From Flaccisagitta enflata (lineage: Eukaryota), in NCBI GenBank assembly GCA_965153355.1, contig OZ231126.1:19592001-19656000 (forward strand): a stretch of DNA of 64,000 nt, given 5' to 3'. Shown one piece after another: positions 34,001 to 37,000 of the stretch. The notes below the pieces were generated by a model. It did not search any database, was not told where the DNA came from, and saw only the letters and a list, made by a program, of their open reading frames with translations. How positions within the stretch are numbered: position 1 is the stretch's first letter; the number at the start of each line of letters is the position of its first letter. The translations under genes and the position numbers were made by a program.

Positions 34001-37000
34001 TTTGGACCTCCGACGAGCAAATCATTGAGTGAGATCCCGTCGGTCGCCGCACGCGCATCGTGGCATACGCGCGTTTTACCGCGCAATTCAACAATATGAA
34101 GTGGCAAGTACCAGCGCGGCTTCTCAATGCCGTCGTCGTCGTCGACGCTGTCAATCTCAATCGCCACTCCCGTCTCGTAAAACTTCTCGATTTCACGGAA
34201 GACTCTTTCTTTGAAGGCTGGATCACGCTTGAAGCGAAAACGTTGGTTACCGAGCCGCTTCATCGCAGTCGGTCGTGATTTCACTCTTCTCAGAATTTCC
34301 ATGATTTTTTCGTGATGAAATTTCCATGTGACGGGAGCAAAGTATTTTTTCACAATTGGGCAAAAATATGTCTTTTCCTCTAACACTTTGCACGCTCTGA
34401 TATTCTCAAGGGAATCGCCCATCTCCTCTTGCGAGACGATTGATGATGCAAAGTCATGGTAGAAGATGCGGTCAATGTTGCTGTTGAGGACGCGATTGTC
34501 GAGGATGCGATCGATGCTGTCGTGGAGGACGCGATCATCCGTTGCGATAGCGTTAACCGACGCAAAGTCTCGCCCCCTCTTCCCCGTTTTTCCACATACA
34601 GTCCAACCGAATAAACATCTGAAGCAAGTCAAGGATCCTGAAGGCCCTCGGCGGATTTCCTGAGCGACGGCGGCATCCGCATGCGCCGCTCCGATGATCA
34701 TCATAACGCCGCCTTCTGCCTCTGGAAACTTTATATCTCTGATGTGTGGTTGGTCGGATAGGTCGCGGAGAAAAGGAGGAATGTCGCGTTCACTCGTTAA
34801 CAAATCACCCACCAACGCGTCGTTGACGTCGACGACATATTCCTCGTCGACCGACTTCATGGTGAATGATGCGATGAAACGATCCTCAACAACATGACTT
34901 CCCACAGTAATCACCGTCATTTGCACTGTTTTTGTTGGAATCAGAAGACTGCGAATGACATTGGTACTGATCACGTCGCGATCAGCGCCTGAGTCGATCA
35001 TAGCGTAAATCGTCCTCTGCGCACCCGAAGAATTGTTTATGATAGTCACTGGAACAATCGGACGGACAACGTCGTCGAATGAAGAGACGGACCGCGACGT
35101 TGCCGTCGCCGCCAGTCATGCCGTGACGTTAGAAGAGATCACTTCCGTAGGATTGGCTGTCTCCGCCGTCGACGGAGCTGTTGGTGCTGCTGCAGCCGCA
35201 TCCTCTGACTTGTTGAAGGGAGCCAGCGGTACTTTATTTCCCTGCTTATTCTCTCCTTTCTTCTCTTCCTTTTCTTCTTTCTTGTAGGTGCGCCCGTGGA
35301 GAATCGTGGCATGCCGCTTCTTGCAGATCTGGCAAGTTGGTCTGTTCGCGCATCCTTTGGCGTTGTGTCCTGGCGCGAGGCAGTGGAAACACAGACGACG
35401 AGACATGATCTTTTGAACTCTCGCGTCCACTTCCAACTCTAACAGCTGATGACACTCTTCTGTTTGATGCATTCCACTGCAGACGTTGCAGCGGTCCGTC
35501 GACTGCATCTTTTGCTTGCCATTGGTCAAAGCATCCTCATATGATGATGGCGCTTCTTTTTCTGTAGTTGCAACTGCTGCCACTGATGCTGTTTTGCAGC
35601 TTGCGCCTTTGTTGCGCTGAATCACCGCCCATGTCTCGATCATGTTGACCAAGTTGTCGAATGAAAATAATTGTCCATTTTGGGCTGCTTCATGTTGCTT
35701 TTCCCAGAATTTATCTGCAAGATGAGGGACCCTCTTATTGAGGATCTCCTGCAGCAGCTCGTCACGATAGCATTGTTGCACTTCTCCACAGGTCCTCGCA
35801 ATCTTCTTTGCTTTTTGCAACCTTGCAGACAAATTGAAATGCCTTGCATGGTCGGCCGACTGGATCTTCGCCTCCGCGACGATTTCGTTAAACAGCGCCG
35901 CAATGTTGCAGCGCCTTGCCATGAAGACGACGTCCATTTTTTCGAAGGCGTCGTCAATCTCTCCTCTTGCTGTCGCTTCAGTTGCACCAATCGTCGCAGT
36001 TTCAATGATTTCCTTTGCCGGACCCGCAAACCACTTAGGCAATTCCAATAAAATGTCCATCTGCGTCAAGCCTTCATGCTTTTCAGCATCTTTAAACTTC
36101 CTCTTCCACATCATGAAATCAGTGGATGAAAGCTCCTGCAGAGGCTTCTCAGGTCTTGCTCTCTCCAATGCTTTGAGGCCGACCTCCCTTGCTCGCATGT
36201 GATCGTTGTACGCCGCTCTTTCCAAGAACATGTCCAGAGCTGGATTGTTGGGCATCTGAACGTGGACTTCCGGTTGACGGGCTACTTGATAATGCTCCAC
36301 TTGATGATACGCTGGGGGTTGTTGGGTAAGCGCGTATTGACCCCCGACTTTGACCGGAGATCTCTTTTTGGTGGTTTTTATACTCCACCCAACTTCTTCT
36401 TGCTGATTCATTTGTTGTTGACGATCATCTTGATGGAATCGGGGAGCATCAAAATCTTGGCGGACGTACTGTCGCTTTTGTTGTTCTTCTTTGCGTTGTT
36501 TCTCTTCTTCTCTCGCTGCAGCAAGGTCAAAGTCCCTCTGCTGAATCTGCATCTTCAAACTATCCACTTCCTGCTGCAAACGTTGATTCTGCTGGATGAC
36601 TTCCGCTTGAGGCGTTACTAGAGGCGCTTGCGCTACTTTTGGCGCCTTCGGCTGCAATCCACTCATTGTCTTCTTGGGAGCGACTTTTCTTCTCTCCTTA
36701 TCTTGCAGCTGCTGTGCCAACTTCGCGTCAGCAGCCTCCTGCTTCTGCCTCCTGCGCATCGCCTCCGTTGCATCACCTCCGCTTCCGGCTGTGTTGAAGA
36801 TCTTTTCCTCTTGAAGGAGAGGTCCAGTCTCCCTTCTAGCAGAACCAATCTGCTTCTCGAAGATCACTTCCGGTGCGGTAGGGAGAATCGTTGCCGCTGG
36901 GGTTTGATGATGCTGATAATGATGCTGTTGCTGTTGCTGAAACCGTTGCTGCTGCCACTGTTGATGTTGAAGCTGCTGCTGCTGGTCAGGATGCTGTTGC

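Follow-up and report, generated by a model that had tools for sequence, protein, structure and literature searches.

How does a retrotransposon produce Pol when its gag and pol genes share one reading frame and a stop codon lies between them? This question is raised by a BEL/Pao long terminal repeat (LTR) retrotransposon on the minus strand, at 26622-39931, of a 64,000-nucleotide (nt) stretch of DNA from Flaccisagitta enflata (NCBI GenBank assembly GCA_965153355.1, contig OZ231126.1, positions 19,592,001 to 19,656,000; the whole stretch is hereafter called the window, and all positions are counted within it). The original prediction for this locus, which was made from the sequence alone, held that the family sets its Gag:Pol ratio by readthrough of an in-frame UGA. 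Here, we have examined the junction, the relatives of both genes and the RNA that follows the stop, and conclude from these comparisons that readthrough of an inherited UGA is the best-supported mechanism, with a probability of roughly 0.55. Three findings favour the prediction, namely that the stop has to be bypassed, that pol lies in frame 0 relative to gag, and that gag-only open reading frames (ORFs) occur throughout the clade; readthrough itself is what we infer from them.

The gag-pol junction

The junction consists of an in-frame UGA, which follows a gag terminus shared with relatives and precedes protease-coding sequence. The features that define it are:

35119..38850, minus strand: gag, 1244 codons counted from the first Met (stop-to-stop frame 39003..35119)
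35296..35490, minus strand: three zinc knuckles, two CCHC and one CCHH, with Cys/His columns invariant in the 20-sequence alignment A2
35116..35118, minus strand: in-frame TGA closing gag, next base C (from translation; context GCA TGA CTG GCG)
35002..35115, minus strand: 38 open codons from the stop to the first Met, with no ATG, comprising a linker and the first two protease strands
34666..35064, minus strand: retropepsin-type protease domain, catalytic DSG at 34987-34995
33730..34665, minus strand: first part of the reverse transcriptase (RT), undamaged, sharing the gag frame and 94% identical to P0002, an intact relative

As predicted, and exactly to the base, gag and the protease/RT sequence form one reading frame with a single TGA between them. 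The 22 open codons that had been described as running from the stop into the protease were recovered by translation, and the three knuckles are present upstream of the stop, with Cys/His columns conserved throughout the 20 aligned gags. The gag frame continues for 478 open codons past the TGA, through the ...AMIDSGAD motif of the protease and into the start of RT. Outside a broken patch within RT, described below, the coding sequence is interrupted only by the TGA at 35118-35116, and the 2398 other codons contain no in-frame stop. Since it is the sole in-frame stop in about 2400 codons beyond that patch, in an element whose LTRs are still 99.35% identical, this stop does not have the appearance of random decay.

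Conservation of the gag terminus among relatives

Whether the stop is shared by relatives or private to this copy was assessed at the protein level, from the protein sequences of relatives. Profile searches of genome contigs with the pol alignment and with the gag alignment matched no relative, and no second copy of the element was found within the 64-kb window. A representative gag search yielded 5926 matches at E≤0.001, of which the best 150 were used for the counts that follow. The third knuckle is reached by 134 of these, and 113 of the 134 informative gags end no more than 40 residues from the window terminus, whereas 12 run on for at least 150 residues, all of them ranking 65 or lower, and nine are intermediate. 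Among the first 60 matches, the knuckle is reached in 50, and 49 of these are gag-only. One relative that is 86% identical (P0011) ends its gag in the same four residues (...NVTA). Other gag-only proteins came from a search with the gag end, including P0005 (62% identical) as well as P0007 and P0008 (33% each); a further match, P0006, is a truncated fragment.

The pol side gives the complementary pattern. Pol-only relatives include P0002 (94% identical, 1312 amino acids (aa), intact) and P0003 (69%), and a junction-spanning search, which covered proteins of 976-3107 aa, retrieved no fused close relative across the junction but only P0002, P0003 and the distant fused P0004. Five pol clusters that are 55-98% identical to the window (P0002, P0003, P0161, P0162 and P0164) all start at a Met located two residues ahead of the catalytic Asp.

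A tree was built from 64 gag cores, comprising 59 of the best 150 matches together with the window, P0005, P0004, P0009 and P0010. Matches were selected if they began by query residue 87 and reached at least residue 335, and the 91 others were omitted as fragments. Fifty-three gag-only rows, the window among them, fall on one side of the starred branch, and all eight fused forms fall on the opposite side; the remaining three rows comprise an intermediate one and two that end at the knuckle or shortly past it and are apparently truncated. Judged from protein sequences, a separate gag is a trait of long standing that extends across the clade, not the product of a recent accident, and the stop is an inherited feature of the lineage. 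The original prediction had identified a sense codon at this position in other copies as the sign of a copy-specific mutation. The comparison run here on proteins favours the prediction in that the termini are shared, whereas the codon in the DNA of those relatives lies beyond protein data.

The position of the terminus also appears to be constrained. Of the 95 gag-only relatives among P0011-P0160 that have a recognizable third knuckle, 66 have A, L, I or V as their last residue, and several end motifs recur within subclades, such as NP.[IL] (11/150), QE[SA][VI]L (3) and G..A (7). The narrow choice of last residues and the recurrence of end motifs suggest that the exact position of the stop is under constraint, and it may have been placed at a Gag-protease cleavage site.

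The protease fold and the first methionine of pol

If pol were translated from its first Met, as the database proteins begin, no bypass of the stop would be needed. Several lines of evidence bear on this possibility. Residues 16-38 past the stop align with a conserved segment, IVPV...TYA.LD..SD, of eight fused BEL/Pao polyproteins, where the window segment DVVRPIVPV... corresponds to IVPV...TYALLDxxSD. In an AlphaFold model of this region (mean predicted local distance difference test score, pLDDT, 79.9), strands are placed at residues 20-26 and 33-40, ahead of the catalytic loop, with pLDDT values of 93 for residues 21-30 and 91 for residues 31-40, while residues 1-15 are disordered. A Foldseek search of this model against the PDB gave 21 matches at E≤0.001, the best being the proteases of human T-cell leukemia virus type 1 (HTLV-1, E = 1.3e-4), Rous sarcoma virus (RSV) and human immunodeficiency virus type 1 (HIV-1). 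Sequence matches to protease families in Pfam and the PDB were weak and below threshold, and begin at residues 13-22.

Because the codons before the first Met hold the first two protease strands, this Met cannot be the true start of Pol, and a Pol begun there would, according to the model, lose part of the protease fold. Since there is no ATG ahead of it and the residues upstream of it are protease-coding, it follows that the stop must be bypassed. Readthrough of the UGA would be the simplest way of doing so, because in this copy the protease is in the same frame as gag.

A putative readthrough mechanism

The mechanism that best accommodates these observations would operate as follows. A BEL/Pao lineage would have abandoned the fused gag-pol frame, and the TGA at 35118-35116 would be its inherited gag terminator, at which most ribosomes would stop and so produce Gag. 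A minority may decode the UGA, followed by C, with a near-cognate tRNA and continue through a linker of about 19 residues into protease, RT, RNase H and integrase, and the outcome would be a Gag-Pol fusion made in a low and fixed ratio to Gag. A GC-rich structure just 3′ of the stop, which is predicted to be either a 6-bp hairpin with a GNRA loop or a competing 18-bp stem-loop, may raise the level of readthrough.

A more specific form of this proposal is that a deep and diverse BEL/Pao branch with a long N-terminal extension of Gag swapped the fused frame for a stop in the linker, with UGA readthrough assisted by a structure that can switch between hairpin and long stem, and with the stop placed at the protease cut. 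As a whole we regard it as tentative and doubtful. If it were true, Gag made by termination would be identical to Gag released by processing, and this would account for the conservation of hydrophobic last residues.

Predicted RNA structure downstream of the stop

Two structures can be drawn for the RNA that follows the stop:

35094..35109, minus strand: local hairpin GCGACG-GCAA-CGTCGC, 6 bp, GNRA-type loop, 6 nt past the stop
35059..35111, minus strand: alternative extended stem-loop, 18 bp in four blocks, of which the main 12 bp begin 9 nt past the stop, with a 13-nt loop

The sequence context of the stop and the hairpin with its 6-nt spacer were found just as they had been described in the original prediction. 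The hairpin alone has a dG of -9.7 kcal/mol, which becomes -19.2 when it is extended to the GA of the stop. The 26-nt segment starting 4 nt past the stop falls in the top 0.92% of 11437 positions in the interior of the element, where only five perfect 6-bp stems with at least five GC pairs and loops of 3-8 nt occur in 11470 nt. Against shuffled sequences, the 33-nt segment has a z of -2.25, with 28 of 1000 shuffles being as stable. The outcome of folding longer segments, which had been proposed for about 150 nt after the stop, is that the hairpin is part of the minimum free energy (MFE) structure of the 171-nt and the 150-200-nt folds. Its pair probability varies with context, from 0.99 in 40 nt to 0.03 in 80 nt and 0.57 in 150 nt. 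In contexts of 60-100 nt, the long stem-loop is the MFE structure (-23.5 to -27 kcal/mol), and it ranks in the top 1.7% of all 60-nt windows.

It was previously reported that 3′ stems with spacers of 6-9 nt stimulate readthrough, and that proven stimulators have stems of 11-16 bp and spacers of 7-9 nt (PMC3159437; this source, PMC4580426, PMC5009743 and PMC2194720 are all cited from partial texts). The structural signal at this stop, which was identified post hoc, is genuine, although modest. The predicted folds are suggestive of a possible role for RNA structure in readthrough.

Comparison with known readthrough systems

In the open literature, no paper linking BEL/Pao elements with readthrough was found; a 2003 survey of gag-pol recoding in LTR retrotransposons, which may list BEL elements with in-frame stops, is known to us only through the partial text of a review (PMC5009743). 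The locus was compared with four better-known arrangements. The first is that of gammaretroviruses of the murine leukemia virus (MuLV) type, in which, as in the window, gag and pol are in the same frame and separated by a single stop, a structure lies near the stop in a position suited to the mRNA entry channel of the ribosome, and Gag-Pol is low relative to Gag (PMC3159437, PMC5009743). MuLV differs in using UAG and a compact H-type pseudoknot 8 nt downstream, whereas the window has UGA-C and a predicted hairpin or bulged stem-loop. The 4-nt loop in the window is too small for pairing of the MuLV type; the predicted folds contain hairpins only, and no dedicated pseudoknot search was made.

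The second comprises the type II sites with UGA followed by C and an extended 3′ stem-loop, which are used by alphaviruses, tobra-, furo- and pecluviruses and a coltivirus, as well as by Drosophila kelch. UGA-C is known as a leaky stop context, and the triplets known to follow UGA are CUA or CGG (PMC3159437). The window shares the UGA-C, and its long fold, with a bulged stem of at least 12 bp located 9 nt past the stop, resembles the 11-14-bp stems with 7-9-nt spacers at such sites (PMC3159437). It differs in having CUG as the triplet, a loop of 13 nt as against about 50-270 nt, and only modest statistical support.

The third is Tca2 of Candida albicans, whose gag and pol, as in the window element, are separated by an in-frame UGA with a structure predicted 3′ of it (PMC2194720). 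Tca2 is likewise an LTR retrotransposon, but it belongs to another superfamily (Ty1/copia) and has a fungal host. By analogy, its resemblance is more appropriately taken as a warning than as support when a mechanism is inferred from layout.

The fourth consists of typical BEL/Pao elements, such as Achilles and the fused P0004, P0009, P0010, P0139, P0149 and P0154, with which the window shares LTRs, three Cys/His motifs, the order protease-RT-RNase H-integrase and the same pol domains. The linker between nucleocapsid and protease and the IVPV strand are homologous between the fused elements and the window. Achilles-type elements have one Gag-Pol ORF "without an intervening termination codon" (PMC4580426), whereas the window has a stop within the linker. 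In addition, the window element differs from typical ones in its N-terminal Gag extension of about 850 residues, its 3.5-kb tail and its length of 13.3 kb, compared with 4.2-10 kb (PMC8742986).

Evidence that weighs against readthrough

Several observations weigh against readthrough of an inherited, structure-assisted UGA. First, the relatives are known as proteins only, and in them gag and pol may be separated by a frameshift or by another stop; in addition, pol of this copy is broken, so that the window represents a defective member of the family. Second, the stop lacks the usual sequel, as the triplet after it is CUG, whereas known sites of the UGA class have CUA or CGG. Third, the structural signal is ambiguous in several respects. 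The perfect stem has 6 bp, compared with 11-16 bp in the proven cases (PMC3159437). The two folds are mutually exclusive, and which of them prevails depends on context length. Among GC-matched windows, the long fold ranks no higher than the top 7%, with 17 loci in the element being equally stable, and the 171-nt fold is unremarkable (z = -1.03). The codons that form the stem are common in the element (GCG accounts for 35% of Ala and ACG for 39% of Thr codons) and show no sign of selection on the RNA. Finally, in a similar retrotransposon layout, the Tca2 junction alone gave no readthrough in a Saccharomyces cerevisiae reporter, according to the partial text of PMC2194720.

Of the claim that the hairpin stimulates readthrough, its presence and local stability stood, while it is shorter than the proven stimulators and competes with a longer stem.

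Alternative explanations

The alternative that survives best accepts that the split is inherited and proposes that Pol is made by other means, such as reinitiation, a non-AUG start (the first codon after the TGA is CTG), an internal promoter or internal ribosome entry site (IRES), or some other bypass, perhaps as an unfused protein. The Tca2 case speaks for it, since there a gag-UGA-pol junction with a predicted pseudoknot not only failed to direct readthrough in the reporter but also contained a cryptic promoter; even so, the Pol of Tca2 is still produced from gag-pol RNA (PMC2194720). The window has in-frame near-cognate starts (CTG and ACG) after the stop and ahead of the protease strands, and the hairpin is weak beside the proven stimulators. 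Against these points, UGA-C is the leakiest stop context (PMC3159437), and no reinitiation signal was identified at the junction. An unfused Pol would also be unusual, as the Pol of retroviruses and LTR retrotransposons normally enters the particle fused to Gag. We consider this alternative unlikely without being negligible.

A second alternative is that working copies of the family hold pol in another frame, which is reached by frameshifting, and that a small insertion or deletion (indel) at the junction has brought it into the gag frame here. About nine frame changes do occur elsewhere in pol of this copy, BEL/Pao gag and pol are described by the International Committee on Taxonomy of Viruses (ICTV) as continuous or overlapping (PMC8742986), and protein data do not separate a frameshift from an in-frame stop in the relatives. 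Nevertheless, all of these frame changes are confined to one 700-nt patch, with the remaining 7.2 kb of coding sequence free of them, and the gag terminus is the same as in the independent relative P0011. Moreover, residues homologous to proteases begin about 13-16 codons past the stop in frame 0, which leaves only about 40 nt for a hidden indel. An origin of this kind is quite improbable.

The weakest alternative, that the TGA is a functionless nonsense mutation restricted to this copy or to a young dead-end subfamily, could draw on the defective state of the copy and on the fused frame of most other BEL/Pao elements (P0004, P0009, P0010, P0139, P0149 and P0154; PMC4580426), but it is highly improbable and largely refuted at the protein level by the identical terminus of P0011 at 86% identity, by gag-only ORFs in lineages only about 30% identical with end motifs kept within subclades, and by pol-only ORFs in five further clusters 55-98% identical to the window with no fused close relative found.

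Three other ways around the stop were considered and rejected. Splicing would rely on a GT...AG pair, identified by eye, which spans 94 nt, is not a multiple of three and would remove a protease strand. For selenocysteine insertion, no selenocysteine insertion sequence (SECIS) element or other Rfam family was detected at the gathering score anywhere in the window. Reassignment of UGA is not reflected in any other in-frame TGA in 2398 codons.

Organization and state of the element

The remaining parts of the element are:

26622..39931, minus strand: the BEL/Pao LTR retrotransposon as a whole, 13.3 kb
39013..39931, minus strand: 5′ LTR (TG...CA), a 921-nt direct repeat with 99.35% identity to 26622-27542
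33015..33725, minus strand: broken pol patch (RT palm/thumb to RNase H) in which the frame changes about nine times relative to P0002 and several stops occur
31086..33008, minus strand: end of RNase H and integrase in an intact frame of 641 codons (third frame), 96.7% identical to P0002, with 0 stops
27543..31085, minus strand: 3.5-kb tail from integrase to the 3′ LTR, with low-complexity ORFs only
26622..27542, minus strand: 3′ LTR, the direct-repeat partner of the 5′ LTR

Membership in BEL/Pao is indicated by the paired LTRs, by Pao-type pol domains in the order protease, RT, RNase H and integrase, and by two CCHC knuckles accompanied by a third, Pao-type Cys/His motif of the kind described for Gag in PMC4580426. 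In the ICTV profile of Belpaoviridae, gag and pol either form a single continuous gene or overlap as two genes, and the genome measures 4.2-10 kb (PMC8742986). The element has instead an in-frame stop, no overlap and a length of 13.3 kb, which is a departure in layout and not in ancestry.

Gag probably starts at the Met at 38850. Based on its translation, on the homologues P0005, P0007, P0008 and P0011 and on alignment A2, it is composed of an N-terminal domain, a Q/E-rich stretch, a capsid-like core and the three zinc knuckles, whose invariant residues in A2 are C271, C274, H278 and C283; C304, C307, H312 and C317; and C323, C326, H330 and H335. A Pfam scan of gag found nothing above threshold; the Atlas clusters closest to the gag core carry DUF1759, the BEL/Pao gag domain, and come from arthropods and cnidarians. 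The N-terminal extension of about 850 residues (36300-38850, minus strand) contains a conserved N-domain and then a long Q/E-rich stretch with poly-Q. The N-domain and a charged, coiled-coil-like middle are common to Gag relatives that are only about 30% identical (A2), and the extension has no Pfam match.

In pol, the fragments in the window match Peptidase_A17, Integrase_H2C2, rve and DUF5641 in Pfam, with Peptidase_A17 lying within one fragment of the broken patch. The intact relative P0002 has the same Pao-type domains together with a weak RVT_1 match. The 3.5-kb tail, whose presence accounts for the length of 13.3 kb, contains overlapping low-complexity ORFs with no recognizable env, and its Pfam scan gave only one sub-threshold match; a purine-rich tract lies directly before the 3′ LTR.

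A frame-by-frame comparison with P0002 placed all of the approximately nine frame changes in the region from about 33725 to 33015; the rest of the coding sequence, approximately 7.2 kb (gag, the start of protease/RT and integrase; about 2400 codons), has none. As judged from its sequence, this copy has a broken RT and RNase H and is not able to move on its own. The 700-nt cluster of frame changes could reflect a local assembly error or patchy mutation, and such clustering does not weaken the case for an inherited TGA.

Flanking sequences and host genes

At the outer edges of the LTRs (39932-39940 and 26612-26621), no clean target-site duplication was recognized by eye despite the 99.35% identity of the two LTRs. 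Adjoining the 3′ LTR on its outer side is an inverted repeat pair (25697-26068 and 26263-26626; 370 bp, 85% identical), which may represent another mobile element, into or beside which the retrotransposon was inserted.

Host exons are present on the plus strand at 9124-10698, 24889-25530, 42994-44103, 50009-51760, 54116-54832 and 55475-56527, and their products include a class II aminoacyl-tRNA synthetase core, a SCHIP-1 C-terminal domain, a PARP catalytic domain, a U11-48K CHHC zinc finger, MoaC and BTB. These flanking genes indicate a metazoan host, and the length of the exons suggests one with few introns. In addition, two stretches, 14000-14900 and 59400-60500, are open in nearly all six frames and are probably simple-sequence repeats, with an AT skew of 0.44 at 14-16 kb and a GC skew of 0.29 at 58-60 kb.

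Implications for BEL/Pao elements

The means by which retroelements fix the proportion of Gag to Gag-Pol is a classic problem. If the proposed mechanism is correct, BEL/Pao, the third superfamily of animal LTR retroelements, would join the groups that use readthrough, and the junction would provide a metazoan UGA-C signal that is compact and open to two competing folds. For the annotation of this clade, the gag-only ORFs and the Met-started pol ORFs found in databases belong together as halves of a single expression unit, and the pol proteins predicted there lack the first strands of their protease.

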